Translations under genes and position numbers: made by a program | IMG/VR virus record: IMGVR_UViG_3300045988_160612 | Location: 1-53,202 of that record | Origin: a virus | Reading direction: 5' to 3' (one strand) | DNA length: 53,202 nucleotides | Notes under the pieces: model-generated | The model's database searches: none | Told to the model about the DNA's origin: nothing | The model's input: the letters and a program-made list of their open reading frames with translations, nothing else | Part shown: positions 6,044-51,805 of the stretch, piece after piece | How the letters are laid out: the number at the start of each line of letters is the position of its first letter | Numbering within the stretch: position 1 is the stretch's first letter

Positions 6044-8785
6044 TTACCCTTTCTTTAATCCTCTGGAATACAACGCCACATTATATTTTTTTACTCTTGA
6101 TAAATAAATACCTCTTTTAAACTCTAACGCTCCATGCTCCTTTAATATGTCAATTACTCTTGACGTAACTACCCTTGATTTGCACCTATCATAAAAATCA
6201 TCATAAGACTTAAATTTTCCATTCTTCTCTCTCTCTGATTCTATATAATCTGCTGCTTTTTTGCCAACACCCTTAATGGAAGATAACCCCATCTGTATTA
6301 TATTTTCGCCCTCTTCTTTCCTGAGTGCAAAATCGCTATAATAATTTACGTGCGGTAAAAATATTACAGCTTCATCTAAAACAGCTTTGGAAGCAAATTT
6401 ATCCATTTCCATCTCATCTTTAGCATACTTCATTTTTGCGTACCAATATTCATTGGGATAATAAATTTTATAAAACATTTCTTCGACACTTATCAAAGAA
6501 TATCCTACACCGTGACCTTTGTTAAATGAATATGAATCTGTCATTTTTGCAAAAAGGTCCTCGGCCTCATCTTTTTTAAAACCCTTTTTCTTAGCGCCCT
6601 CCCAGAACTCTGCAAACAAAATATCATACAAATTTTTCTGCTGTACTCGCTCTTCGTCTTTCTGGCTAGTAGATTTCATCATTTTCAAAATCTTATCAGT
6701 TGTCGCCCATTCCATGCCACCAATATACACACAAATCATCATTATTTGCTCTTGATATATAACAGTACCATAGGTGTCCTGTGTGTACTTATAATACTTT
6801 ACAGACATCGCCTTTTCCTTGTTATATTTGTTATGAGCATACATATCAGGCATCTTCAGGGATAATGGGCCGGGTCTATTCATGGAGGAAGCTGCAACTA
6901 TATCCTCAAAACAATCACAGTTGATTTTTGTTAAAATATCTCTGGGTGTAAAGGATTCAAACTGGAATATTCCATCACAATTTCCTTTTCCAAACTCGCT
7001 GATTATTTTTTTATCCTGTACGATTTTTGTATAATCAACTTGCACACCTGTTACCTTTCTTAAATCGTCCAAACTTTCCATAGTTTTTAAACCTAAGATA
7101 TCAAATTTGATAACATTGATTTTTTCAATATCCACCAAATCATAATTAGTAAACAGGTTGCCATCTTTATCTATTTTTAACGCTGTGTATTGTGTGATAT
7201 CACCACCAGTAATAGCAACACCAGCTGCATGAGTACCTATATATCTTACCTTTTTAAACAGCTTTGTGAAATGGATAATTATATCATCATAGCGCTGATT
7301 ATACATTACCGCTCTACTGTCAGACAATAAGCCGACTATATTTAAATCGTCATCGGCTGCATACGGTTTAATAAAATTCTTTATCTCTGCTATAGTCCTT
7401 TTTCTCTCAGCTATTTCTTCTGGAGTTGCATCTTTATCAATGGTATTTAAACCACAAACCTTAGCCAAATCATTTATCAGATTATCAGTTTTATACAAAC
7501 CATATGCACAAATTCTTGCAGCATGACCAGCATATTTTTTACAAAGATATTCTATAACTTCATGCCTGCGGGAAGTCTGAAAATCAAGGTCAATATCGGG
7601 AATTTTCTTTTTATCCATACGCAGGAAGCGCCTAAAATCTAATCCAAAAAATATAGAATCTACTTCCGTTATTCCAAGAACATAAGCAACTTCACTGTTG
7701 CAAACTGAACCTCTTCCGGGACCTACTGCAATACCACGATTCTTAGCCCATTTTACATAATCCTGCACAATAAGGAAATAATCAGCAAAACCATGATGTA
7801 CTATAACATCATATTCTTCTTTGCACCTTGCTATATACTCTTTGTTTTTTTCTTTACCTCTGTAAACTAATCCTTTCTTGATATTTTCCTTTAAGATTTT
7901 TGCGGAATCTTGACCCTCAATTTTGGGGAAAATCAATTCCAACTGGCTTAAAATATCCCCATCAACTTTATCCTCTATTTCATCTAAAGCTGCATACATT
8001 TCCTTAGCCAGCTTCTTTGTCTCGGCTTCTCCAAAATCCTTTTTGTGCATCTTATAAAAACGCTTTTTCATTTCATCTGGTGCAGGCATATAGCGCTCCG
8101 CATAAGTTGCTTCTATATCGGCAAAATTATGTCCCGCTATCTCGTGCATCTTCATGTATGTGGGGAAGTCCTCTTTTCTTCCTCTATGGGAATCAGAGGT
8201 TAATATGCACTTAATGTTTAATTTCTTAGCTAACTTAATTGATTCTATATTTACCTTTTCCTGCAATCCTACATCTGATACTTTATACGGCTGTACTTCC
8301 ACATACAAATCATCTTTAAAAATCTTTTTGAGCTTTAGCAAAAACTTTTCCGCTTTTACTAAATCGTCCTTAATTATACACTGAGCTAAATATCCTGCAA
8401 CACACGCTGTAGTGCAGATTAAGCCCTCATGATATTTTTCTAACATATCAAAATCCCAAATGGGATTATAAAATTTCTGTTTTTCTCCCTCATATTGCAC
8501 GTTATTCAGATTCTCAAATCCTTTTAAATTCTTAGCCACTAATATCATATGGTAACCACGATTCTGTGGTACATATTTAGGAAGAAAATAGCCCTCTACT
8601 CCAAGAACTGGCTTTATCTCACATTCCTTGCAAGCAAAATAGTGCTTCACTAATCCGTGAGCATTACCATGATTTGTTAAACCAAGAGCCTTATATCCCA
8701 GCTCTTTTGCTAACGCTGCTAATTCTCTTGCTTTGCCAAATCCATCAAATGTGGAATACTCATCATGCCTATGCAAATCAAACAT
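6044..8785 (-). CDS. dnaE: DNA polymerase III alpha-subunit-like replicative polymerase (PHP domain plus Pol IIIA core).
   Basis: N-terminal PHP motifs (DLHRHDEYSTFDGFG, TNHGN) and core motifs (GPGRGSVCNSEVAYVLGITEVD, PDIDLDF). 913 aa. Confidence 0.9.
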   Translation of the reverse strand: MFDLHRHDEYSTFDGFGKARELAALAKELGYKALGLTNHGNAHGLVKHYFACKECEIKPVLGVEGYFLPKYVPQNRGYHMILVAKNLKGFENLNNVQYEGEKQKFYNPIWDFDMLEKYHEGLICTTACVAGYLAQCIIKDDLVKAEKFLLKLKKIFKDDLYVEVQPYKVSDVGLQEKVNIESIKLAKKLNIKCILTSDSHRGRKEDFPTYMKMHEIAGHNFADIEATYAERYMPAPDEMKKRFYKMHKKDFGEAETKKLAKEMYAALDEIEDKVDGDILSQLELIFPKIEGQDSAKILKENIKKGLVYRGKEKNKEYIARCKEEYDVIVHHGFADYFLIVQDYVKWAKNRGIAVGPGRGSVCNSEVAYVLGITEVDSIFFGLDFRRFLRMDKKKIPDIDLDFQTSRRHEVIEYLCKKYAGHAARICAYGLYKTDNLINDLAKVCGLNTIDKDATPEEIAERKRTIAEIKNFIKPYAADDDLNIVGLLSDSRAVMYNQRYDDIIIHFTKLFKKVRYIGTHAAGVAITGGDITQYTALKIDKDGNLFTNYDLVDIEKINVIKFDILGLKTMESLDDLRKVTGVQVDYTKIVQDKKIISEFGKGNCDGIFQFESFTPRDILTKINCDCFEDIVAASSMNRPGPLSLKMPDMYAHNKYNKEKAMSVKYYKYTQDTYGTVIYQEQIMMICVYIGGMEWATTDKILKMMKSTSQKDEERVQQKNLYDILFAEFWEGAKKKGFKKDEAEDLFAKMTDSYSFNKGHGVGYSLISVEEMFYKIYYPNEYWYAKMKYAKDEMEMDKFASKAVLDEAVIFLPHVNYYSDFALRKEEGENIIQMGLSSIKGVGKKAADYIESEREKNGKFKSYDDFYDRCKSRVVTSRVIDILKEHGALEFKRGIYLSRVKKYNVALYSRGLKKG

Positions 8786-8807: not shown

Positions 8808-9743
8808 TTATTTAATCAAATCATTTTGTTTCAGAATATCTAAAAATTCTATCTTTTTATTTTTCGCTTTATTCTTTTCTGGACTTCCGATATTGTAGTG
8901 AACTATAGATTTATTTAATAATAATTTTGGATTTTTAGGCATCTGTTTTAAAGAACTTATTTTCCTAACATACTTACCTAATTCAAAATTATATAAATCA
9001 TTTTCACACACAAATGAATTTTCAAAATTTTGGTCTTGAAAAAATCCTTTGGTTTTATCCGTATTAAATTTACACCAGTTTTCAAAATAAAAACATAAAA
9101 GCTTATTTTCAAAAAACTTTTCCAAAAGTTTTTTATAAGATTCTAAAAGGCTGTTATTCATAACATAAATTCTGGTTCCACTATTGAAATAATTATCAAC
9201 ATATTTGCTTAAAATATCCTGAGGAATAGGATTTTTATTATTCCATAAATTTATCAATTCTGACTGCACATCGTTAGAATAATAAATTTTATTACCTTGT
9301 TTATCCTTTTTAACCAAAAATCCTGTCATTCCGTCCCGTACAAAAGAGCAACAATTTATATTTTCAAAAATATTTATCAAATCAGAGGTTATTAAAATAT
9401 CATCATCAAGAAAAAGTATTTTTTTACAATTCGTTTTCTTAAACAAATAATATTGTGGCAAAATATTCATTCCCATTTTATACACATTTAAAAAATGCTG
9501 TCCCTGCTCTGATAATTTGAGATTCTTTAAACAAAAATCATTTACCTTTTCGGAACCTATTACTTTAAAATTACTGATATATTTATTAGCTATATCAGCA
9601 ATTTTGCCAGTCCTATCTGATAGCCGCTGTTCATTAACAAAAACAAATAATATCTTATTACTTTGCTTTGGCATATTCTTTAGCATAGATTCAAAATATG
9701 CCATATTATTTGCCAAAACACAAACTATATATTTAAAAGCCAT
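8808..9743 (-). CDS. Glycosyltransferase family 8-like (retaining GT-A) protein.
   Basis: LPQYYLFKKTNCKKILFLDDDILITSDLINIF contains a DxD motif. YFNSGTRIYVMN and FFQDQNFEN resemble the GT8 YFNsGV and DQD.lN blocks. Confidence 0.6.
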   Translation of the reverse strand: MAFKYIVCVLANNMAYFESMLKNMPKQSNKILFVFVNEQRLSDRTGKIADIANKYISNFKVIGSEKVNDFCLKNLKLSEQGQHFLNVYKMGMNILPQYYLFKKTNCKKILFLDDDILITSDLINIFENINCCSFVRDGMTGFLVKKDKQGNKIYYSNDVQSELINLWNNKNPIPQDILSKYVDNYFNSGTRIYVMNNSLLESYKKLLEKFFENKLLCFYFENWCKFNTDKTKGFFQDQNFENSFVCENDLYNFELGKYVRKISSLKQMPKNPKLLLNKSIVHYNIGSPEKNKAKNKKIEFLDILKQNDLIK

Positions 9744-10421
9744 TTACTGTTCTCCTTTAGCAATCAAATCTCTTGCATACAAATGCAATGACCCAGCAAC
9801 ATGGGTATAAGTTCCTAAACCTATACCCAACTCCATCGACATTAAAATCTGCATACAAGTGAACTGGAAAACATCATACGGAAAACCTAACCAAATGTCA
9901 TTGCTGCGCATATAAACAGTTAAATACAGTTTATCATGTCTGATTAAAAATTGCAAGCATACTGTACAATTTACGTCTTTGGATTCTTTGTTATCTGCTG
10001 TCTTGATATGGATAACTGCCTGACGCGTATTAGGGTCTTTTTTCAACAGATTCTTAACATATTCCCACTGGTCAAAATCAAATTTATTTTTGATACAATA
10101 ACCATAATTGGAATTTACTGTTTTACCATCATCTGACATTCTATCCCAATTTTTTGTATATTTCTGTATTTCCTTTAAGCTATTATTTCCAGACAAATAC
10201 CACAAAAGCTCTCCTACTGCATATCTCATAGACAGCTTGCGGATATCAGATGCAAGTATATTTTTAGTAGGGTCTTTTATCTCAGTAATAGCATTTATAA
10301 CTTCCCCGCAAATTTCTCCATCACGACTGCTTTCATTATCTTTCATAGTAGATAAAACATTGTACCAACGGTCCCATGCCTGAGTTATATTTTCACATGA
10401 CATATAATAATTAAATAACAT
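9744..10421 (-). CDS. ThyA-family pyrimidine C5 transferase. Probably a deoxycytidylate hydroxymethylase or methylase rather than a thymidylate synthase.
   Basis: NCTVCLQF aligns with ThyA PCHAFFQF (catalytic Cys). MRSNDIWLGFPYDVFQF aligns with YQRSCDVFLGLPFNIASY, placing Asp where ThyA has the uracil-specifying Asn. GSLHLY aligns with GDTHLY. Confidence 0.75.
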   Translation of the reverse strand: MLFNYYMSCENITQAWDRWYNVLSTMKDNESSRDGEICGEVINAITEIKDPTKNILASDIRKLSMRYAVGELLWYLSGNNSLKEIQKYTKNWDRMSDDGKTVNSNYGYCIKNKFDFDQWEYVKNLLKKDPNTRQAVIHIKTADNKESKDVNCTVCLQFLIRHDKLYLTVYMRSNDIWLGFPYDVFQFTCMQILMSMELGIGLGTYTHVAGSLHLYARDLIAKGEQ

Positions 10422-10424
10422 TTT

Positions 10425-10886
10425 TCAAAACTTCCTTTCTTTCCTTACTTTTTCTACAAGGCTGCTTGATGATTCTATTTTATTACCTAAACCATCAACT
10501 ATTTTGATTCCCAACTCAGCACAAATTTTAGCTTCTGGAATCTCACTTGCGTATCTATCGCCGCCCTTAGCAAATATAAAATTGCTCACTGTGTCTTTAT
10601 AATCGCGGTAAATGCTGCCTATCGTTCGGCTAACAGACATATCAGTGTCTATAGATATAACTACCCTATCTACACATCTAAGCTCACTGAGAAGCGCCAG
10701 ACGCTGTTCTTGTGTATAGAAGCAATAACCCTTTTTCTTGATAAGAAAATCATCTGTATTTAAGATGCAAACATGATAACCGCCTAAAGCATAACCGCCT
10801 AAAGCTTTTGCTTGCTTTAAATATTCTATATGACCAATGTGCAAAGGGTCAAATCCACCAGAGGTTATAATTAACGTTGATTCCAT
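10425..10886 (-). CDS. Cytidylyltransferase-superfamily nucleotidyltransferase (TagD / RfaE-domain-II-like).
   Basis: TSGGFDPLHIGHIEYLKQAKALG carries the HxGH motif. VDRVVISID and FAKGGDRY resemble heptose-1-P adenylyltransferase or glycerol-3-P cytidylyltransferase. Confidence 0.75.
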   Translation of the reverse strand: MESTLIITSGGFDPLHIGHIEYLKQAKALGGYALGGYHVCILNTDDFLIKKKGYCFYTQEQRLALLSELRCVDRVVISIDTDMSVSRTIGSIYRDYKDTVSNFIFAKGGDRYASEIPEAKICAELGIKIVDGLGNKIESSSSLVEKVRKERKF

Positions 10887-10892
10887 ATCACA

Positions 10893-12080
10893 TTACTTTC
10901 CTTTCTTAGACTTTACAATATTTTCCAAATAGGTATTTATTTTATCTGCTACAATTACACAGCTGTTTTTTCTAACACTCCGATTATCATACAAATCAAT
11001 AATATCCTGCAAATATAGTTTACTGTACGTTTCATTGTGTTTTCCAAGTTCTACGGTTGCTATCAGTTTAGTTAATTTTGCGCTCATCTCTGCTGGGGTC
11101 TGACAATAACCATAATAGTTATCATTAAATATTTCTGCATAGCCAAAGCTTTTAGGCAGCAAACAAATATTGCCTGTTATTGCACAATCTACTGTTGACA
11201 TTGACCACATTCCACATGATGTAAAAAATGTATTCAAATGCCCGAGAATCTTATCGGAACGCAAGAAATTATAATATTCTTCTGTGCTGCCCAAGGATAT
11301 AGATTTAAAATATGGTTTGTCAAGTTTAAAATCTTTTCCACTGGGATTTGTAAAATAAATCGTGGGCATATCCTCAATTTTTATTGAGCATTCCAAACTG
11401 TCGCAAATACGCAATAAAGTTTGATAAGCATTTAAATAATAACTGTCGCTGCTTAACCGATGATTATAAACAAATGCAAACTCAGCACTTGCATTCTTGT
11501 CTTTGCTTTTAAACAACTCTCTCTCATCGTAACAAGGCTGGGCTTTGATAATATTCCCTATCTTACAATTATATTTTTTATGATAATAGCTAATAATCTC
11601 ATTTTTAGCATAATCAGAATTTACAAAACAAATATCAGCTGCTTTCATGCCCTCAAACTGTCTCAACTCTATCTCTGGCATATTCTTAAATGCTAACCAA
11701 TGGTTATATGTAGCTATTGCACTATTAGGGAAAATCTTTTTCAATGGAATTACCTTTGTTGGCTCATTCACAAACACAACATCAAAATCCGCCATCTTGC
11801 TTACACGCTGGAAGAAATTTGCATCAAAAGAAAAACGCTCCAGCATCGCATTTGTAAATGTTCTGGTATTATTAAAAATCGAATAGAAACTCTCTTCAAA
11901 CTCGCTATCTAAGACTGTGCAATTATCCTGTGAAAACTCAAACGCAACATATACATTATTAGTTCTTGTAAATTTTGTACCTATCAAACTCCTAAGAAAA
12001 TTTATGTTGCTATCCTTATTTAACAAAACAATTCCGTCAGATGATAAACTACTTATTTGTGGAATCCATAAAATTCTCAT
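10893..12080 (-). CDS. Putative GT-B fold glycosyltransferase.
   Basis: It starts MRILWIPQ, and the C-terminal half (FTSCGMWSMSTVDCAITGNICLLPKSFGYAEIF) resembles the GT1/GT4 donor-binding region. This is weak by eye. It is coupled by TAATG to the upstream gene. Confidence 0.45.
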   Translation of the reverse strand: MRILWIPQISSLSSDGIVLLNKDSNINFLRSLIGTKFTRTNNVYVAFEFSQDNCTVLDSEFEESFYSIFNNTRTFTNAMLERFSFDANFFQRVSKMADFDVVFVNEPTKVIPLKKIFPNSAIATYNHWLAFKNMPEIELRQFEGMKAADICFVNSDYAKNEIISYYHKKYNCKIGNIIKAQPCYDERELFKSKDKNASAEFAFVYNHRLSSDSYYLNAYQTLLRICDSLECSIKIEDMPTIYFTNPSGKDFKLDKPYFKSISLGSTEEYYNFLRSDKILGHLNTFFTSCGMWSMSTVDCAITGNICLLPKSFGYAEIFNDNYYGYCQTPAEMSAKLTKLIATVELGKHNETYSKLYLQDIIDLYDNRSVRKNSCVIVADKINTYLENIVKSKKGK

Positions 12081-12964
12081 TACAGAAACAACTCCTTTTT
12101 ATCTTTGTAATCGTCCCAGTGTGCATTAAATTTTACGTATCTATCGCAATCCTTGCAAAAATCATACAGCACATTTGGATTATCCAAATCATTCAAATTT
12201 CCTAAACTAAACTTTCCTTTCCAGTCTCTGCCATTATCGTTTATCGCTCTGCAACACGGGTATTCCTTACCAGATTCATCAATGATTCTGTGAGCAGATT
12301 TTACATAGCATCTACTGGGCTTTGGAAGATTTTTACTGTTATAAATTTTAAGAAAATTATTAACCTCTTCCGGGACAGGCTCGCAATTTTCCACAAAAGA
12401 ATTTATGATATAATCTATCATGTACTGCTGTAACATTGCATTTTCATCTGTATGTACCGGGAAAAATCTTACTGGAATTTTTATGTTTTTACAAAGGTTA
12501 TAAATATTTCTGACATCAAAATAATTCCTACATGATACCGTACAATTTGCTTTGATTTTGTTTGCATAGGATAGGATATTTTCTATCACAGTATTAAAAC
12601 CAAATTCCGTGCATCTTCTAACACTATAATAAGTTGCGTGGTCAGAACCATCTAAGCTAACTTGTATGCACTTTGCATTGTCTAAAAACATATGCTGTTC
12701 ATAGGTTAAAATATAATTCATATTTGTAAAAACCTGATACACTATATCGTTCTGCTCCAGCACCTGATTCAATGTATGTAATTCTGAGTAGTTTAAAGGG
12801 TCCCCGCCAGAAAAGGTAAATGTGGAATCATAATACTTTGTTATCTTACGTATCAAAGTATTGATATCAATTTCCTTGCTCTCCCAGGTATATTTTCTAC
12901 ACATAAAACAACGTTCATTGCATTTTGTAGTCAACTGCACCTGCACACTTTTAATTTCACTCAT
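12080..12964 (-). CDS. Radical SAM enzyme with a Cys-rich C-terminal (SPASM/twitch-like) region.
   Basis: TTKCNERCFMCRKY gives CX3CX2C, and FSGGDPL is present. C-terminal cysteines occur in YPCCRAINDNG and DFCKDCDRY. The start was set to the ATG at 12964 after GAGGGAAAAG. Confidence 0.8.
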   Translation of the reverse strand: MSEIKSVQVQLTTKCNERCFMCRKYTWESKEIDINTLIRKITKYYDSTFTFSGGDPLNYSELHTLNQVLEQNDIVYQVFTNMNYILTYEQHMFLDNAKCIQVSLDGSDHATYYSVRRCTEFGFNTVIENILSYANKIKANCTVSCRNYFDVRNIYNLCKNIKIPVRFFPVHTDENAMLQQYMIDYIINSFVENCEPVPEEVNNFLKIYNSKNLPKPSRCYVKSAHRIIDESGKEYPCCRAINDNGRDWKGKFSLGNLNDLDNPNVLYDFCKDCDRYVKFNAHWDDYKDKKELFL

Positions 12965-13532
12965 GAGACTTTTCCCTCTTTTCATCTTCTAACTTTTTCC
13001 TTAATCTTACAAAATTTACAACCTCTGGAATGCTTTTGTAATTTGCATTTTTAGCATAAAAACCAGAACCTATAATATCAGATTTTATTCCGCCTAAAGC
13101 AAAATGACTTTGCCAGATTTCATTAAACATTCTGCTGTAATAGCTCAAATCTGCGCCATGTTCTTTGGAAGATTCTTCAAGTGATGTGGGCTGCATTAAA
13201 AACACAAAAACAGAATTTCCTTTATCTGCATACTGCTGCAATCTCTTGTTGATTAACCTAACATTTTTTAACGCTTTCCCTACCTTGTAACCTCTTTCCA
13301 CTATACCATAAACACAGTCCGTAAGATATGACCTATCTATAATCAAATCAGCTTTTAACTCTTCCACAGTCTGTATCAGCATCAATGTTTTATCGGTTTC
13401 CTGCTTATTTTTCATTTCATCATACGGAATTATTCCATTGTATTTATGCACAGGAATCTTAGTTTCTTCTAATATTTTATTGCACAAAGTTGTTTTACCA
13501 ACTCTGTCTATTCCCTCCACTATGATTATCAT
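12957..13532 (-). CDS. Thymidylate-kinase-like (d)NMP kinase.
   Basis: MIIIVEGIDRVGKTTL is a Tmk-type P-loop, and DRSYLTDCVYG resembles the Tmk DR.. motif. Confidence 0.7.
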   Translation of the reverse strand: MIIIVEGIDRVGKTTLCNKILEETKIPVHKYNGIIPYDEMKNKQETDKTLMLIQTVEELKADLIIDRSYLTDCVYGIVERGYKVGKALKNVRLINKRLQQYADKGNSVFVFLMQPTSLEESSKEHGADLSYYSRMFNEIWQSHFALGGIKSDIIGSGFYAKNANYKSIPEVVNFVRLRKKLEDEKREKSHE

Positions 13533-13554
13533 AAATATTTCCTTTCAAAATAAA

Positions 13555-13602
13555 ATACAGGCAATCAAAGTTCAAATCTAATCAAACTAAAATTGCCTGT
13601 AT
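13555..13602 (-). terminator. Hairpin (11-bp stem, 26-nt loop) followed by a U-run. Possible terminator or attenuator in front of the modification operon.
   Basis: atacaggcaat / attgcctgtat. The minus strand continues TTTATTTTGAAAGG straight into the kinase RBS. Confidence 0.45.
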
Positions 13603-13652
13603 AAGTTATTCATATTTTTTATTTTACTTATCCAAGCAAATTTTAATTACAA

Positions 13653-14027
13653 TCAAGCATCACTTATCCTTTTGTTATTTTCTTCTATCTTAGCCAAAAT
13701 TACCTTTTCAAACTCAGCAGCAGACAAACCGGAGAAAATTGCAATGTTCATGACAAAAATTATTGCATCTGCTATTTCCTCATGTTTATTTGTCAAATCC
13801 ACTTTATCGTCACGATAATTCTTCCAACGCTTATCAGCTTGGAGTATTTCCCCAATCTCTCCAATAAGAGCCTGAACATGATAAGAAGCTAAATCAACAT
13901 TATCAACAGGCAAAGTCATATTTGCGGCTTCTTTGGAAGTCAAACAATTATAACCTTTCTTATTGATAACATCTTTCTGGAACTGTACCTGTTTACTGTA
14001 AATTTCTGAAAACTGCATTTTTCTCAC
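13653..14027 (-). CDS. MazG-like all-alpha NTP pyrophosphohydrolase.
   Basis: IGEIGEILQADKRWKNY and HEEIADAIIFVMNIA match the MazG EExxE/D-type helices. Confidence 0.7.
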   Translation of the reverse strand: MRKMQFSEIYSKQVQFQKDVINKKGYNCLTSKEAANMTLPVDNVDLASYHVQALIGEIGEILQADKRWKNYRDDKVDLTNKHEEIADAIIFVMNIAIFSGLSAAEFEKVILAKIEENNKRISDA

Positions 14028-36579: not shown

Positions 36580-36666
36580 TGGTGCTGGCAACGGGATTTG
36601 AACCCGTATGATATTTCTACCGAGGGATTTTAAGTCCCTTGTGTCTGCCGATTCCACCATGCCAGC
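36580..36666 (-). tRNA. tRNA-Leu (anticodon UAA), type II, CCA encoded.
   Basis: GCUGGCA acceptor pairs with UGCCAGC. The D region is GGAAUCGGCAGAC. The anticodon loop CUUAAAA sits on a 5-bp stem. It has a long variable arm and the T arm ACGGG-UUCAAAU-CCCGU. Confidence 0.9.
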
Positions 36667-36672
36667 AATTTC

Positions 36673-36759
36673 AGAACACAGCTAAAGTGCAGAAGCAAAA
36701 CCCTTTCATAAATTTTAGCTAAACTCATAAAACAAGATTTGCCATAATAGCTGTGTTCT
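36673..36759 (-). other. Unassigned structured spacer: 12-bp perfect stem (agaacacagcta / tagctgtgttct) closing a 63-nt loop between the two tRNA-Leu genes.
   Basis: Read directly. It has no tRNA T-loop or anticodon architecture. Confidence 0.6.
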
Positions 36760-36761
36760 TT

Positions 36762-36846
36762 TGGTACTCCAAGTGGGATTTGAACCCACACGCCTTTCAG
36801 CAGCAGTTTTTGAGACTACCTTGTCTGCCCATTCCAACATTGGAGT
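36762..36846 (-). tRNA. tRNA-Leu (anticodon CAA), type II, CCA encoded.
   Basis: ACUCCAA pairs with UUGGAGU. The D region is GGAAUGGGCAGAC. The anticodon stem GUAGU/ACUGC carries the loop CUCAAAA. It has a long variable arm and the T arm GUGGG-UUCAAAU-CCCAC. Confidence 0.85.
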
Positions 36847-36848
36847 AT

Positions 36849-36870
36849 ATTCCGCGGGGTACCGCGGAAT
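36849..36870 (-). other. GC-rich 9-bp hairpin (attccgcgg-ggta-ccgcggaat) abutting the 5' end of tRNA-Leu(CAA).
   Basis: Read directly. It is strikingly GC-rich for this genome. A U-run follows it only on the plus strand. Confidence 0.7.
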
Positions 36871-36925
36871 TTCGTTTTTCATTTTTAACCAGGTTGAAAT
36901 GCTTATTAAAAACTTTCCTGGTTTT

Positions 36926-37001
36926 TGGTGTGCCTGGAGAGACTTGAACTCTCGACCCATAGATTAAAAGTCTATTGCTCTACCGACTGAGCTACAAACA
37001 C
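36926..37001 (-). tRNA. tRNA-Lys (anticodon UUU), CCA encoded.
   Basis: The acceptor GUGUUUG/CAGGCAC has two G.U pairs. The D arm is GCUC-AGUCGGUA-GAGC. The anticodon arm is AUAGA-CUUUUAA-UCUAU. The T arm is GAGAG-UUCAAGU-CUCUC. Confidence 0.9.
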
Positions 37002-37014
37002 ACAAATGGATTTT

Positions 37015-37090
37015 TGGTTAGGATAGCCGGATTTGAACCGGCGAAATGACGGGGTCAAAGTCCGTTGCCTTACCTCTTGGCCATATCCTA
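37015..37090 (-). tRNA. tRNA-Gln (anticodon UUG), CCA encoded.
   Basis: The acceptor UAGGAUA/UAUCCUA has U1-A72, as in bacterial tRNA-Gln. The D region is GCCAAGAGGUAAGGC. The anticodon loop is CUUUGAC. The T arm is GCCGG-UUCAAAU-CCGGC. Confidence 0.9.
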
Positions 37091-38763: not shown

Positions 38764-41100
38764 TTAATACTTTTGACCTGATACAGCACATTCCAGGTAT
38801 ATCTGTCCGTATTCTGAACGAATCTTAGTAATTACAAAACTTGTACCTCTTTGGATAATAGTTTCATCTTCGGAGCCAAAGTGGTTTTGCTTTTTCTTAC
38901 CGTCCCAGAAGTTTTCATATACATTAGAATTATATTGATTATAATTACTTTTATTTCCACCATAATGGCTCCATGGCTCGGCATATATCATATGAGTTCC
39001 AGCAGGACAGAATATATTCATTTTGTGACCACCAAAACCTGTACCTTTTGTAGTACCACATGACATAAAGCCCTCATCTGTAACAACTTTACCGACTAAA
39101 GACTGCAAATCTTCATTACTTGCATTTATTAACCAGTCTGCTTTTACTCCAAGGAATGAAGCCATACCCTCGTCAGTTCCAACACCACGGTTAAGCCAAT
39201 AGTCTTTGTTATAAAATGATTTAGATATTGCTTCCGTCATTTTGTTAATGTAATACTCACCCTTATCGTTTTCATTATCCAAACTTACCTTTCCAATGCC
39301 TAAGAAATTTGACCAAGAATAATCATATCCCCTAAGTGGACGATTCATAAAGCCCGACCCATATGTATATAAATACAAAGCTTCTTTCTGTGGCTCTGTG
39401 TAGGTATTTTTCCATAACTGAGCTATCTTGCTTCTCAAAGCTGCATCTGCATCTTTAGCATCATAAAACCAAATTCCAGCATCTAATCTTTCTTGACTAT
39501 AAGCATTGCTCAGAATCGCTTTAGATTCTTTGGTTAATAAGCTTTTTACTCCTAAATTATTTACTGTGTCTTTTACCTCTGGAAATTTTAAGTTGTTATT
39601 ATAATATTTTTTTAATTTATATAATACGTCTGTTGTATCATTTGACCAAATTACCTGATTTATTCCTGCATTAGTTTCAAGCATTTTCCAATAATCATAA
39701 TTATTTAAATACTCTGTGGAAGTAAGATTCTGGTATTTATCATATACAAATTCTGCAAATTGCTTTCCACTCTTTGGCATATTCTCAGGACTAAATCCTA
39801 ATGGGGATAACATTTCCTTTTGTATCTCATTAAATACTTTTTCCACTGTTGATTTTTCTTTTGCAGCTAATTCCTTTTCTGCTGCTAACTCAAAGGAATA
39901 TTTAGACACTGATAAATTTTCATTATACCACAATTCCATTTTCTGAAATGGGTGAGCTTCGGAATGCAAATTTAATACATCAAACAACTCTGTTTTTTCT
40001 TCACTAGTAAGTTTATGTGACCACTCAGAAAATTCTGGAGTTGTATATGGATTGTACCCCTTAGTAGCAAGCCACATTTCTTGCAACTCATTATATTGCT
40101 TGTGGAAGTCCTCACCTGTAAGATATGTCATATAGTCATCTAACTGCTCATTATCTTCTCCGTTTACCCAATTAGCTAAGTCATCTGATATAGCATCTAA
40201 ATTCTTAGTTAATACTGCTTCAAATGTACACATTCCATTAGGGTGGTCCATTGGTACACTATTTAAATCATACATCTTGCCATTACGTGATTCACACAGT
40301 TCACAAGTTCTTTCTACCATAGCAGCTCTCCACATGATTTTTTCAACATATGGATTCTGTTTGCAAGTTTCTATGATACTTTGCTGGTAAGCATGAGCCA
40401 CCATTGTACGTGCTAGCCTCTGAGCATTATAATCTACATTTCCAAAATAAAACTTTCCATATTTCCCAGGAATAGGAATCCTTTTACCATTAGCATCTTT
40501 TTTAAACGTACCGTCTGGATTTTTTTCATACTTAGGATATTTTATTACTCTACTTGGTTTGCTCTGTGCTGGAGTAACATATTTTTCTAAGTCTTTTGCT
40601 ATTTCTAATGATGATTTATTTTCTGCTATACCCTTTGACACAATATCAGATAAAACACCTTTAGATTTATTATTGATACCCCAAATAGCACTACTGAAAT
40701 TCCAATCATTTCCATATAACTTACCCGACATAATATTAGCTATTACATCTTGTGGAACATGAGCAACTTTTCCCTCAAATGTCAAACCTAAACCAGATAA
40801 CCAACTTAGATTATTCTGTACTACTGCATTAGATACCTTGTAAACACTTCCTTTTATTAGTTGTGACTGCTGCTCTTCTAATTCTTTTAAATTATGATTT
40901 ATTGATTCTAACAGATGATTTAACTGTGTTTTCCTTAACGATTCAGAGACAGCAAGGGAAGATTTTAGATTCAATTTTGATATTTCATGTAACGTTTCTG
41001 ATTTAGCTTTCTTGTACATCTCTATAATAGCCTTAGAATCATCTGTGGTCAAGTCTGATAAACTTTTATAAGCTTTCCCGAATGTTATCATATTAGCCAT
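38764..41100 (-). CDS. Minor head protein (SPP1 gp7 / Mu F-like) fused to a C-terminal R-S-E ADP-ribosyltransferase domain.
   Basis: The gp7-like block is CELCESRNGKMYDLNSVPMDHPNGMCTF. The ART motifs are FMNRPLRG (Arg), GFMSCGT (STS-like) and SEDETIIQRGTSFVITKI (ExE). Confidence 0.8.
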   Translation of the reverse strand: MANMITFGKAYKSLSDLTTDDSKAIIEMYKKAKSETLHEISKLNLKSSLAVSESLRKTQLNHLLESINHNLKELEEQQSQLIKGSVYKVSNAVVQNNLSWLSGLGLTFEGKVAHVPQDVIANIMSGKLYGNDWNFSSAIWGINNKSKGVLSDIVSKGIAENKSSLEIAKDLEKYVTPAQSKPSRVIKYPKYEKNPDGTFKKDANGKRIPIPGKYGKFYFGNVDYNAQRLARTMVAHAYQQSIIETCKQNPYVEKIMWRAAMVERTCELCESRNGKMYDLNSVPMDHPNGMCTFEAVLTKNLDAISDDLANWVNGEDNEQLDDYMTYLTGEDFHKQYNELQEMWLATKGYNPYTTPEFSEWSHKLTSEEKTELFDVLNLHSEAHPFQKMELWYNENLSVSKYSFELAAEKELAAKEKSTVEKVFNEIQKEMLSPLGFSPENMPKSGKQFAEFVYDKYQNLTSTEYLNNYDYWKMLETNAGINQVIWSNDTTDVLYKLKKYYNNNLKFPEVKDTVNNLGVKSLLTKESKAILSNAYSQERLDAGIWFYDAKDADAALRSKIAQLWKNTYTEPQKEALYLYTYGSGFMNRPLRGYDYSWSNFLGIGKVSLDNENDKGEYYINKMTEAISKSFYNKDYWLNRGVGTDEGMASFLGVKADWLINASNEDLQSLVGKVVTDEGFMSCGTTKGTGFGGHKMNIFCPAGTHMIYAEPWSHYGGNKSNYNQYNSNVYENFWDGKKKQNHFGSEDETIIQRGTSFVITKIRSEYGQIYLECAVSGQKY

Positions 41101-47663: not shown

Positions 47664-48143
47664 TTAATTTTCAAAGTCCCACACAAATTTTCTAAGTTGT
47701 ATACCTGCCTCATTCAACAAATTATCTGCCAACTGAGATGGGTAAAAATCATCATATATAACTACAGATATTCCAGCATTAATAATCAGCTTTGCGCATT
47801 CTGCACATGGTTTATGTGTACAGTACATAATTGTATCTTTGCAGCTGATTCCCAACGCTGCTGCCTGTAAAATAGCATTTGCTTCGGCGTGTACAGCTAA
47901 ACACTCATCATGCCCTTGACCATGACCAAAGCCCAGCTGTCTTTTCCGACAAAAACCATAATCATATGCGCAATTTTTAATGCCCTTAGGAGCACCAGAA
48001 TACCCTGTAGCAATTATTCTTTTATCTTTTATGATAACAGCACCTTTATGTGCAGATAAGCAGGTACTTCTTTCGGAAGCTGCGTATGCTATTTTCATAA
48101 AATATTCGTCCCATGAAATTCTACTCTTCTTCTTTGATTCCAT
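47664..48143 (-). CDS. dCMP deaminase (ComEB / T4 Cd-like).
   Basis: The zinc motifs HAEANAI and PCAECAKLI are present, and the N-terminus is WDEYFM. Confidence 0.9.
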   Translation of the reverse strand: MESKKKSRISWDEYFMKIAYAASERSTCLSAHKGAVIIKDKRIIATGYSGAPKGIKNCAYDYGFCRKRQLGFGHGQGHDECLAVHAEANAILQAAALGISCKDTIMYCTHKPCAECAKLIINAGISVVIYDDFYPSQLADNLLNEAGIQLRKFVWDFEN

Positions 48144-49708: not shown

Positions 49709-50800
49709 TTATGCTATCTGTTTTAATGCAGCTGCATATTTATTATCTTTTGCGTTGTTTGCAAGAAGCTGTATAGTGTCTTTGGTCAGCCCCTTTACAA
49801 CAGCAATTTCAAGGATTTTTGCAAGGTCAAGCTTGTTTTCGAGCTTTGCTATCATTGTAATGCATCTGTAAGAAAATGTAGCTCTTACAAGATTTACCTC
49901 GGCAATATTTCTGATATCTTCTATAAAATTTACAAGCTCCACATTTCCTTTTGCAAGATATAATTCAATGTCCCTATCATAATTGAACTCAATAATTACG
50001 AACCTATCAAGCGTAGCCTGGTCAAGAACCATTCTTCCTGTATAGTTTTCATCTGCTCCTTGACCTACTGTATTACCAGCAGCCACTACCCTAAAGTTTT
50101 CATTTGCATTGATTCTACCATTGGGAAATTCAAAGTAACCATTTGCTATTGCAGCATTCAAAAGGACCAAGACCTCAGGAATGGAAGCATCCATCTCATC
50201 GAGGAAGAACAAACCTCCATTTTTAAATGCCTTATAAAATTCAGTTTCGTGATAAACTCCACCTGCATCTATAAAACCAGTAAGCTTGTATTCCTGCTGA
50301 ACTGAGTTTGTGAAGTAAAACTCTAAGCCCATATCCTTTGCTATCTGCTCCAAAGTGTGATTCTTACCAGAACCGGCAGGACCAGCAAGATAAACAGGAA
50401 CATTGTTTTCAATACAAGTCTTAATAGTCTCATATTCCTTATGGTGTACTTCTCCTTTGGGAATTTCAACCTTAGGAATCTCAATCTCCTGTTCCTCGAT
50501 TTCTTTCTTGATGTCTTCCTTTACAGAACCAGACTTCTTAGAATTGATAAAAGAACTGGACTTCTTAATTCCTTTAGTCTCATACTTAACATTCATGGAA
50601 TCAAAGGTATAGCTTCCATCATCTTCATTATTGAACACAATGTCAATGCCCTCAATAACAGTATGGAAGTTTCCTTCCTTATCAACGTAAGCCTTACGAA
50701 TGTAATTATAAATCTTTTCAGAATTAGGGTACTTAACGTATACCACTACATAATTTCCCTTGTTGGCATCTTCAATTTTAATAACTGTAAACTTTTCCAT
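49709..50800 (-). CDS. AAA+ ATPase (MoxR / CobS / AAA_5-like).
   Basis: Walker A is LAGPAGSGKN, Walker B is GGLFFLDEMD and sensor-1 is VVAAGNT. The N-terminal ~130 aa are unassigned. Confidence 0.8.
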   Translation of the reverse strand: MEKFTVIKIEDANKGNYVVVYVKYPNSEKIYNYIRKAYVDKEGNFHTVIEGIDIVFNNEDDGSYTFDSMNVKYETKGIKKSSSFINSKKSGSVKEDIKKEIEEQEIEIPKVEIPKGEVHHKEYETIKTCIENNVPVYLAGPAGSGKNHTLEQIAKDMGLEFYFTNSVQQEYKLTGFIDAGGVYHETEFYKAFKNGGLFFLDEMDASIPEVLVLLNAAIANGYFEFPNGRINANENFRVVAAGNTVGQGADENYTGRMVLDQATLDRFVIIEFNYDRDIELYLAKGNVELVNFIEDIRNIAEVNLVRATFSYRCITMIAKLENKLDLAKILEIAVVKGLTKDTIQLLANNAKDNKYAAALKQIA

Positions 50801-50938: not shown

Positions 50939-51805
50939 TTATATTTTATTGAATTTTTCTACCTCATCATCTACACTTGATATAAAATTGTGCAGGTATT
51001 TTTCTCCAGGTTTTAAAAATTCCTCTGTAATAATTTCCCTATCGTATATAGTGCTACCAGCACTATTAGCAAAAGTTGTTTTGGGAATATCTGGAATATT
51101 TTCATCAAATGCCACACAAACTCTTGCAGCAAATATTATTCTTCTCAGCATATCTGGGTGAGACAATGCAAATGCTATGACACCCAGATTAAGTTTTTCT
51201 GTGGAGTTTTTTATTCTTACCCGAATTGTTAATACTTGTTTTCCATTTGGTATAATTACTGGAGATATAATATCTAAATTGCATCTAACACCCTGAGATT
51301 CCAATTTCTGAACTATTGCTAAAGCCTTAGCAGAATTATCAATTATAGTATCAGTTGACACGGTGGCTAAAAAACCAATATGTTTAACAACTGTCATTGT
51401 TTTTTGCTTTGTTGGAACTCTCTTGCTATTTATCATATTAGTAGGAATGCCCTGTAAATATCTTGGTACTGAACACTGATAACCAGCTATAGAATACTCT
51501 GGCTTAGTTTTTATAGAATTAGCATTGATATTATATTTTGTGTTAAGAAGATTATTTATGTTTTCTTTTCCCTTTTCCCAGCCTGTTTTTGCAAGCTTAA
51601 CAGCTTCTTCATAATTTTCCGCTAAATTAAAGTTTTGTTTAGGTTTATAATCTGCTATACACTCAAAATTACACTTAAAATCAAAAGAATTTTTTTCAAT
51701 GAATTTGTTTATATAGTTTAATATTTCAGACAAAGAGTTAAAATAAACTATTGTTGCTTTCTCATCATAAAAAGATTTTTTTATTATTTTAATTTCTGTG
51801 TACAT
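50939..51805 (-). CDS. Hypothetical protein (partner of the AAA+ ATPase by position).
   Basis: 288 aa. No MIDAS/vWA motif was seen. Confidence 0.5.
   Translation of the reverse strand: MYTEIKIIKKSFYDEKATIVYFNSLSEILNYINKFIEKNSFDFKCNFECIADYKPKQNFNLAENYEEAVKLAKTGWEKGKENINNLLNTKYNINANSIKTKPEYSIAGYQCSVPRYLQGIPTNMINSKRVPTKQKTMTVVKHIGFLATVSTDTIIDNSAKALAIVQKLESQGVRCNLDIISPVIIPNGKQVLTIRVRIKNSTEKLNLGVIAFALSHPDMLRRIIFAARVCVAFDENIPDIPKTTFANSAGSTIYDREIITEEFLKPGEKYLHNFISSVDDEVEKFNKI

Follow-up and report, generated by a model that had tools for sequence, protein, structure and literature searches.

We analysed a stretch of viral DNA of 53,202 nucleotides (IMG/VR record IMGVR_UViG_3300045988_160612; below, the window means this whole stretch). 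The subject is a cluster of seven genes at positions 8808–14027, which runs into the gene of a DnaE-type replicative DNA polymerase. The original prediction, made from the letters of the sequence, took this cluster for a pathway that puts a glycosylated or otherwise elaborated 5-hydroxymethyl pyrimidine into the DNA of a Firmicute siphovirus whose polymerase is of the DnaE type. The window, about 53 kb long, is nearly the entire genome of an uncultured phage of gut Clostridia, and every gene in it is on the minus strand. Among its genes are those of a large terminase, of a major capsid protein of the E type, of a tape-measure protein of 1325 amino acids (aa) and of four tRNAs. The proposed setting is reasonable, because the terminase is nearest to those of Clostridium, Bacillus and Anoxybacillus phages (about 55% identity), and the DnaE and ThyA-like genes are nearest to those of the Agathobaculum phages AB434P2/AB434P3 (63% and 68% identity). 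Over the cluster region, the window shares about 97% identity with an IMG/VR contig of 53,454 bp. The cluster is real, conserved and phage-specific.

All seven predicted open reading frames (ORFs) of the cluster are present, on the minus strand. In the order of transcription they encode an all-alpha nucleoside triphosphate (NTP) pyrophosphatase (PPase) of the dimeric dUTPase/MazG type (13653–14027), a Tmk/YorR-like P-loop nucleoside-monophosphate (NMP) kinase (12957–13532), a radical S-adenosylmethionine (rSAM) enzyme of about 294 aa (12080–12964), a GT4-like GT-B glycosyltransferase (GT) of 395 aa (10893–12080), a HIGH-motif nucleotidyltransferase similar to HldC/RfaE-II and TagD (10425–10886), a ThyA-fold enzyme (9744–10421) and a GT8-like GT-A glycosyltransferase of 311 aa (8808–9743). 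The DnaE gene (6044–8785, minus strand) is located directly downstream of the GT8-like gene. Its product is 63–71% identical to orthologues with the PHP, DNA_pol3_alpha and HHH_6 domains. It turned out that the family calls of the original prediction hold for six of the seven genes and for the kinase in part, its likeness to Tmk being loose. The rSAM, cytidylyltransferase-family and ThyA-family calls agree with profile matches (rSAM, CTP_transf_like and Thymidylat_synt), and the two GT calls agree with structure models. The profile and structure searches that the prediction had proposed did not place either GT or the ThyA homologue in an unrelated family.

The last six genes are packed tightly. 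The kinase and rSAM genes overlap by 8 nt (ATGAGTGA) if the rSAM start is set at 12964, as in the rSAM homologues; the longest ORF begins at 12985. The rSAM and GT-B genes overlap by 1 nt within TAATG. The gaps are 6 nt between the GT-B and nucleotidyltransferase genes, 3 nt between the nucleotidyltransferase and ThyA homologue genes, 0 nt between the ThyA homologue and GT8-like genes, and 22 nt between the GT8-like gene and dnaE. The MazG-like and kinase genes are separated by 120 nt, and this spacer contains a hairpin of 11–12 bp followed by a U-run (13547–13602, minus strand; arms 13602–13592 and 13565–13555, with an inner stem, and U-run 13554–13547). The folding energy of the hairpin is −24.1 kcal/mol (z = −6.96), and none of 200 shuffled sequences folded equally well. 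In divergent relatives, the same junction carries unrelated GC-rich hairpins with U-tails (related loci L002:6515-6585, L009:6480-6560, L017:3640-3715 and L005:6420-6520). A terminator or attenuator thus appears to be conserved here and to split the module for replication into two units of expression. All seven genes had been predicted to form one translationally coupled unit. This stands for genes 2–7, up to and into dnaE. The first gene is split off from the other six by the 120-nt spacer with its conserved terminator-like hairpin.

The ThyA homologue offers a clue to the base that would be modified. It matches the Pfam family Thymidylat_synt with E=1e-27. In a search against PDB, the best match was MilA (1e-29), followed by ThyA (3e-18) and the T4 dCMP hydroxymethylase dCH (9e-14). 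In E. coli numbering the protein has Asp at 143, the catalytic Cys at 146, Asp at 169, Asp at 177, Ser at 167 and Arg at 126, which is the set of T4 gp42. The window protein shares these gp42-type diagnostic residues with all 10 orthologues examined. The numbering comes from an alignment with E. coli ThyA, and database-derived alignments with T4 gp42, MilA and B. subtilis ThyA agree with it. At the position-143 site the motif is D-V-N-C, compared to D-V-A-C in MilA and D-F-M-C in T4. The deoxyribose-type Ser (in YMRSND) and Arg (in NTR) stand at the positions of MilA A176 and K133. The protein lacks about 45 C-terminal residues of ThyA (the Pfam match covers positions 10–215 of 266).

We took the rules that relate these residues to the product, which are backed by experiments, from PMC13326640 and PMC5175136. 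In the ThyA family, replacement of Asn177 by Asp changes the substrate from dUMP to dCMP (PMC13326640). An acidic residue at the position of E. coli L143, which gives access to water, accompanies a hydroxymethyl rather than a methyl product. Replacement of Asp169 by Asn is the mark of flavin-dependent 5-hydroxy-dCMP synthases of the RB69 gp48/DLP3 gp80 type. Mutational data for MilA show that Ala176 and Lys133 lead to a preference for ribo-CMP, and Ser and Arg to a preference for dCMP (PMC5175136). Since residues 143, 169 and 177 together with the Ser/Arg pair match gp42, the ThyA homologue is predicted to be a dCMP 5-hydroxymethylase of the gp42 type, and the gp42-type residues at 143, 169 and 177 point to cytosine as the modified base. 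A 5-hydroxycytosine synthase was rejected, as the window protein and every orthologue keep Asp169. A MilA-type CMP (ribo) hydroxymethylase was rejected by the Ser and Arg at the diagnostic sites.

The enzymes that could prepare the nucleotide pool are present as well. The PPase, which had been called MazG-like, matches Pfam dUTPase_2 above the cut-off (E=1.1e-5, 26.3 bits vs 22.9) and phrog_173 (E=1e-10), and it is found in every related locus. Its pairwise similarity to T4 gp56 is marginal (E=0.035), with a weak C-terminal motif. We propose by analogy that this PPase is the counterpart of gp56 and may clear dCTP and dUTP. Single-sequence searches against PDB gave just P-loop-level or marginal matches for the kinase and the PPase. 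The kinase matches phrog_761 (E=6e-13), and as a single sequence it is matched through the P-loop only. A profile of nine orthologues finds SPbeta YorR (1e-9) and thymidylate kinases (8e-7) over a region that spans the P-loop and the DR...Y motif. The family profile supports a P-loop NMP kinase, and we propose for it the role of a 5-hydroxymethyl-dCMP (hm-dCMP) kinase. A DNA base kinase of the 5-HMUDK type was rejected, because the kinase profile meets M6 gp54 at the P-loop only (2 bits).

Two distant genes had been assigned to the same pathway. The dCMP deaminase at 47664–48143 (minus strand) was confirmed by Pfam dCMP_cyt_deam_1 with E=7e-24. The protein at 2786–3442 (minus strand), which had been called ThyX-like, has no support as such. 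It is a protein of 218 aa that matches phrog_6721, a family labelled without a function, with E=7e-70, and it has no RHR/SxRY motif of ThyX. A likeness to ThyX was not detected by searches of PHROGs or by comparison with a true ThyX, that of locus L020; Pfam (E<=10) and PDB gave no match at all.

The rSAM enzyme appears to represent a new subfamily of the twitch/SPASM type. The motifs CNERCFMC (CX3CX2C) and SGGDP (a GGE-like SAM motif) and the cysteines 219, 237/238, 270 and 273 (numbered in the 294-aa form that starts from 12964) are kept across 31 sequences. By sequence, the enzyme belongs to the SPASM/twitch branch, including the C-terminal Cys set for a putative auxiliary cluster. It scores below every NCBIfam cut-off (viperin 28 vs 180 bits, BlsE 23 vs 400, MoaA 35 vs 231–325). 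The family profile finds viperin-like proteins (1e-8), SkfB (2e-7) and BlsE (4e-6) in PDB, all through the core only. The PADLOC pVip models, both for viperins associated with kinases and for those not associated with them, match the family (the window protein and its homologues P0074, P0086 and P0090) at 1e-10 to 3e-18. Therefore, automated pipelines would mislabel the phage rSAM as an antiviral viperin (pVip). Two other candidates were rejected. An activase of the NrdG type gave weak matches, the phage protein has an extra Cys-rich C-terminal domain, and no NrdD-like gene was seen among the large ORFs scanned. An isomerase of the M6 gp53 type is not matched by the rSAM profile.

The GT-B protein has no Pfam or NCBIfam match, and its fold is evident from the predicted structure alone. 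The AlphaFold2 model (AF2; mean pLDDT score 91.3) was matched by Foldseek to ManT, BshA, MshA and PimA at E of about 1e-11 with a TM score of 0.67, and also to phage GTs, including that of SP-15. R208, K249 and E316 are invariant among the homologues; in the EX7E motif, the second Glu varies. One homologue has a precomputed Glyco_transf_4 match. By this model, the 395-aa protein is a GT4-type enzyme with the two Rossmann domains of the GT-B fold, and it is nearest to the retaining transferases of GT4. A BLASTP comparison with T4 beta-gt was not significant, and the top 50 Foldseek matches in PDB are GT4, GT5 and GT20 enzymes. We propose that the GT-B enzyme may put a sugar on 5-hydroxymethylcytosine (5-hmC). 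At three loci (L002:8001-9482, L012:8001-9482 and L027:6888-8369) the GT-B is fused to a C-terminal cupin of the mannose-6-phosphate-isomerase type (PF01050, 1e-16), and all three loci also have the nucleotidyltransferase gene. These fusions, together with the mannosyltransferases among the best structural matches, give a faint hint of a manno-configured hexose or heptose as the sugar.

The nucleotidyltransferase matches Pfam CTP_transf_like (E=1e-11). The rfaE_dom_II model (TIGR02199), for heptose-1-phosphate adenylyltransferases of the HldC/RfaE type, covers it at full length with E=9e-17, at 61 bits against a cut-off of 181.5. It also aligns at full length to HldC (PDB 5x9q), and TagD and ECT fit its N-terminal half about equally. 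The proposed role is the making of an activated donor. The GT8-like protein was modelled with pLDDT 94.6. The Foldseek matches of this model include glycogenin, LARGE1, XXYLT1 and LgtC, each with a probability of 1.0, and their TM scores are 0.45–0.52. D113-x-D115 and H282, which form a DxD...His triad with the His as the predicted C-terminal metal ligand, are conserved, as is K297. The match to Pfam GT8 (PF01501) is below the cut-off (6e-4, 19.8 bits vs 24.3); 22 of the 54 members of the family match it at E<=0.01. The isoelectric point (pI) of this protein is 9.2, close to 9.05 of T4 beta-gt. As modelled, the 311-aa protein is a GT-A enzyme of the GT8 type, and we propose that it is a second DNA glycosyltransferase confined to some lineages.

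We compared the window with related loci. The order is the same in all 14 loci with enough sequence: primase, single-stranded DNA-binding protein, NTP-PPase, kinase, rSAM, GT-B, nucleotidyltransferase (in some), ThyA homologue, GT8-like GT (in some) and DnaE. The rSAM stop codon overlaps the GT-B start at each of the 14. The rSAM/GT-B pair is the conserved core of the cassette. At this type of locus, the GT8-like gene is found in close relatives of the window only. Its homologues, at 29–45% identity, fill the slot between the ThyA homologue and DnaE in L020, L023 and L025; in L020 the place of the ThyA homologue is taken by a ThyX-family gene. This gene of L020 (a JGI 3300068068 contig, 1697–2668) encodes 323 aa (Pfam Thy1, 6e-17). 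It overlaps the GT8-like gene (2665–3540) upstream of DnaE and is located beside a weak HAD-like phosphatase. Possibly, the ThyX-family protein is a pyrimidine-modifying enzyme that supplies a DNA glycosyltransferase.

Homologues of the rSAM, GT-B and GT8-like proteins occur on phage-like contigs only; the rSAM/GT-B contigs are metagenomic and have a length of 40–60 kb. Among 50,697 GenBank phages, nothing was found with the three proteins by tblastn or with the cluster by megablast. In 185,579 species genomes (GTDB), the sole match of the rSAM is a 6.7-kb contig of a metagenome-assembled genome, which is itself the phage cluster. Thus, there is no cellular context from which the function of the rSAM could be inferred. 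The cultured Agathobaculum phage AB434P2 (L001, OP172633; 1314–5582) retains the PPase, kinase, ThyA homologue and DnaE around a different cassette: a 366-aa protein weakly similar to choline/APH kinases, a 151-aa CTP_transf_like protein, and proteins of 328 aa and 361 aa with faint GT10/GT47 matches. Since the same flanks enclose a different cassette in AB434P2, the frame of 5-hmC synthesis and polymerase genes appears to be fixed and the sugar cassettes swappable. Such diversification is expected of a glycan cassette in an arms race. In GenBank, the ThyA homologue of AB434P2 is labelled deoxyuridylate hydroxymethyltransferase despite the Asp at the cytosine-specifying position.

Taken as a whole, the cluster probably directs the biosynthesis of a hypermodified cytosine for phage DNA, namely 5-hmC with attached sugars. 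The PPase, the kinase and the dCMP deaminase are present, and the two confident GT models keep the catalytic motifs, so the families support such a pathway. A 5-hydroxymethyl pyrimidine pathway with GTs and donor or tailoring enzymes, as originally predicted, fits these data, and the gp42-type residues narrow it to cytosine. We infer every substrate in the scheme that follows: those of the pre-replicative part from family and active-site residues, and those of the post-replicative part from fold, synteny and analogy. The all-alpha PPase would clear dCTP (and dUTP) to dCMP. The ThyA homologue would convert dCMP to 5-hydroxymethyl-dCMP, using methylene-tetrahydrofolate. The Tmk-like kinase would then form the diphosphate of hm-dCMP, the nucleoside diphosphate (NDP) kinase of the host would form the triphosphate, and the downstream DnaE polymerase would build the hydroxymethylated nucleotide into DNA. 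The distant dCMP deaminase may feed dTMP synthesis and balance the supply of dUMP and dTMP. After replication, the GT4-like GT-B would use an NDP-sugar as donor and glycosylate the 5-hydroxymethyl group. The rSAM, the expression of which appears tied to that of the GT-B, would alter this sugar, be it in the form of the NDP-sugar donor or already linked to DNA, and the change could be a dehydration, a decarboxylation, an epimerisation or an oxidation. Where it is present, the HldC/TagD-like nucleotidyltransferase may create or boost the activated donor. In the lineage of the window, the basic GT8-like enzyme may add a second sugar or glycosylate a further subset of 5-hmC. The purpose of the modification would likely be to shield the phage DNA from restriction and CRISPR nucleases.

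More tentatively, the rSAM/GT4-like pair may install a radically remodelled sugar on 5-hmC (for example, a deoxygenated, decarboxylated or epimerised one), giving a cytosine hypermodification of undescribed structure. It is plausible that the final chemistry is not among the described ones. Several observations weigh against the proposed pathway as a whole. The nucleotidyltransferase is dispensable, being missing in about half of the lineages (L007, L009/L011, L013, L015 and L026), and the genes scanned did not include a mutase, a kinase or a phosphatase for sugar phosphates. The rSAM exceeds the cut-off of no characterised family, and its distances from viperin, BlsE, MoaA and peptide maturases are much alike. 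The specificities of the kinase for hm-dCMP and of the PPase for dCTP are putative. With a median pI of 5.8, members of the GT-B family are acidic to neutral, in contrast to T4 beta-gt and the GT8-like protein, and a small-molecule acceptor is therefore possible for the GT-B, the pI comparison being soft evidence only.

A more radical version of the remodelled sugar is an adduct assembled on the free nucleotide before replication. In that case, free nucleotides, for example hm-dCMP or an NTP, would be glycosylated or remodelled by the viperin-like rSAM, the nucleotidyltransferase and the GT4-like enzyme, which is acidic, and DnaE would incorporate the product. Such an order agrees with the neighbouring genes, all of which encode nucleotide-pool enzymes, and with the small-molecule acceptors of MshA and BshA, the closest folds of the acidic GT-B. 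The best PDB and PADLOC matches of the rSAM profile are viperin-like enzymes that modify NTPs, and pVips are typically associated with kinases. However, the viperin similarity is that of the generic rSAM core (28 bits against 180), and viperins do not have the C-terminal Cys cluster. The Tmk-like kinase would need to take a bulky substrate, and the characterised phage DNA glycosylations all act on the polymer. We consider this order of events unlikely. The same viperin matches could mean that the rSAM is outside the DNA modification pathway and serves as a phage viperin-type weapon or anti-defence tool, making, for example, a chain-terminating or signalling nucleotide. Besides the PADLOC pVip matches, this agrees with a published survey that reports "viperins" beside ThyS/GT clusters; these may be explained by rSAM enzymes such as the one described here. 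We regard it as very improbable: the score is far under the curated viperin cut-off, viperins have nothing like the conserved set of twitch-like cysteines, a shared pathway is indicated by the overlap of the rSAM and GT-B genes, which is strict at every locus, and chain terminators would threaten the replication of the phage itself.

It is also conceivable that the 5-hmC part alone concerns DNA, and that the GTs, the nucleotidyltransferase and the rSAM target wall teichoic acid or polysaccharide of the host, providing superinfection exclusion, or virion proteins. Enzymes of the GT4, GT8 and TagD/HldC types are typical of cell-envelope glycans, and about 65% of the phage GT contigs in a published survey have no base-modification neighbour. 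Against a target other than DNA, these genes are translationally coupled within the replication module and lie between the kinase and the hydroxymethylase at 14 of 14 loci. In other lineages, relatives of the GT8-like gene repeatedly occupy the place that follows a gene for ThyA or ThyX and precedes that for DnaE, and no membrane or secretion features were noted in these proteins. Such a division of the cluster is quite unlikely. Least credible of all is ordinary nucleotide metabolism, with the ThyA homologue as a plain dTMP synthase and canonical virion DNA. GenBank relatives are indeed labelled "thymidylate synthase", but the protein has Asp for Asn177 and Asp for Leu143, as T4 gp42 does, lacks the C-terminal part of ThyA and scores far better with MilA than with ThyA. 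We can hardly believe this explanation.

The preferred reading, glycosylated 5-hmC, resembles several known systems. With the T-even glucosyl-5-hmC system the window shares a gp42-type hydroxymethylase with identical diagnostic residues, an all-alpha NTP-PPase, an NMP kinase and a dCMP deaminase, and the GT genes adjoin the hydroxymethylase upstream of the polymerase, as in T4. However, the window has GT4-like and GT8-like GTs without similarity to beta-gt, a Tmk/YorR-like kinase and a DnaE polymerase, an rSAM and a HIGH-motif nucleotidyltransferase are added, and the host is an anaerobic Firmicute. Only the hydroxymethylase qualifies as a member of the T-even system; otherwise, the likeness is in the way the pathway works. 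The claim of a one-for-one mirror of T4 is not supported: the GTs are unrelated to alpha- and beta-gt, an equivalent of Td (ThyX) was not detected, and the similarity to gp56 is marginal. Nor is the setting new, as had been supposed, because Firmicute siphophages of the VPE25/VFW type with DnaE, a gp42-type enzyme and beta-gt are already known. Experiments have shown the DNA of VPE25 and VFW to be cytosine-modified, and it resists bisulfite conversion. Enterococcus phages VPE25 and VFW and Lactobacillus phage ATCCB are, like the window, Firmicute siphophages with DnaE, a ThyA homologue of gp42 pattern (41–48% identical to that of the window) and adjacent GT or nucleotide-sugar genes; the VPE25 protein has the same pattern of diagnostic residues. 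They differ in having a T4-like beta-gt together with a galactofuranosyl-type enzyme or UDP-Galp mutase, and they lack homologues of the rSAM, the GT4-like and the GT8-like proteins.

Among the metavirome clusters for 5-hmC glycans described by Pyle et al. (bioRxiv 10.1101/2023.12.21.572611), contig 53 encodes a HAD/APH enzyme, a cytidylyltransferase and a GT-B that together yield heptosyl-5-hmC. That work catalogued thousands of ThyS-associated GT clusters and describes ThyS-associated GT-B clusters as common. Compared by enzyme class and fold, the window shares with contig 53 the cytidylyltransferase-like protein and the BshA/MshA-like GT-B. It has no HAD/APH enzyme (AB434P2 has one), and it adds the coupled rSAM and the extra GT8-like GT. 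The clusters for thymidine hypermodification in M6, ViI and PaMx11, with 5-HMUDK, AADT and the rSAM isomerase gp53, also combine a ThyA-family hydroxymethylase with post-replicative tailoring, and M6 gp53 is the only known rSAM enzyme that installs a DNA modification; it acts on thymidine. In these phages the base is uracil/thymine, not cytosine. The kinase and the rSAM of the window are related to gp54 and gp53 at the superfamily level only, and the window has no aGPT-Pplase or pyridoxal phosphate enzyme.

The mildiomycin/blasticidin S pathway has the same trio of enzyme classes, namely MilA, the GT CGA synthase and the rSAM decarboxylase BlsE/MilG. MilA is the best PDB match of the ThyA homologue, and BlsE is among the best of the rSAM profile. 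However, the window has Ser and Arg where MilA has Ala and Lys, an N-glycosidase of the MilB type was not seen, BlsE is matched far under its cut-off, and the genes are in a phage replication module. This parallel is a resemblance, not membership. The arabinosyl-5-hydroxycytosine system of RB69/DLP3 also includes a ThyA homologue, a dNMP kinase, NDP-sugar synthesis and DNA GTs. It differs by D169N, which is absent in the window protein, where the Asp is kept. With strict anaerobes as hosts, the phage is unlikely to use flavin/O2 chemistry of this type.

Some features of the window are located outside the cluster. Four tRNA genes, Leu-TAA, Leu-CAA, Lys-TTT and Gln-TTG, form a group at 36580–37090 (minus strand). 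The gene at 38764–41100 (minus strand) encodes a 778-aa protein with a Mu-F-like head morphogenesis domain and a C-terminal ADP-ribosyltransferase exoenzyme/toxin domain (PF03496, 3e-10). This protein is possibly an injected effector. In the early region, an AAA_5 (MoxR-like) ATPase adjoins a DUF7192 protein (49709–50800 and 50939–51805). Other early-region genes encode a DUF3310 protein with the PHROG label "nucleotide kinase" (2185–2823) and a Cas4/RecB-like exonuclease (678–1508).

Hypermodifications of phage DNA decide the resistance to restriction enzymes and CRISPR nucleases, and they are also a source of enzymes for epigenomics and DNA labelling. In the literature we searched, no rSAM enzyme of a cytosine pathway and neither the GT4-like nor the GT8-like family found here is described as a DNA-modification candidate. 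Within a category that is known and heavily surveyed, the rSAM/GT pair offers a specific and testable way to find new DNA chemistry. If the proposed pathway is true, a radical SAM enzyme would for the first time take part in the modification of cytosine in DNA, by an oxygen-independent route that would suit phages of strict anaerobes. Through a conserved rSAM/GT pair linked to a dCMP hydroxymethylase, radical chemistry would then extend to cytosine glycans in phages that are abundant and infect gut Clostridia. With sugar cassettes swapped between fixed 5-hmC-synthesis and polymerase genes, this group of phages would represent a natural library of DNA glycosyltransferases.

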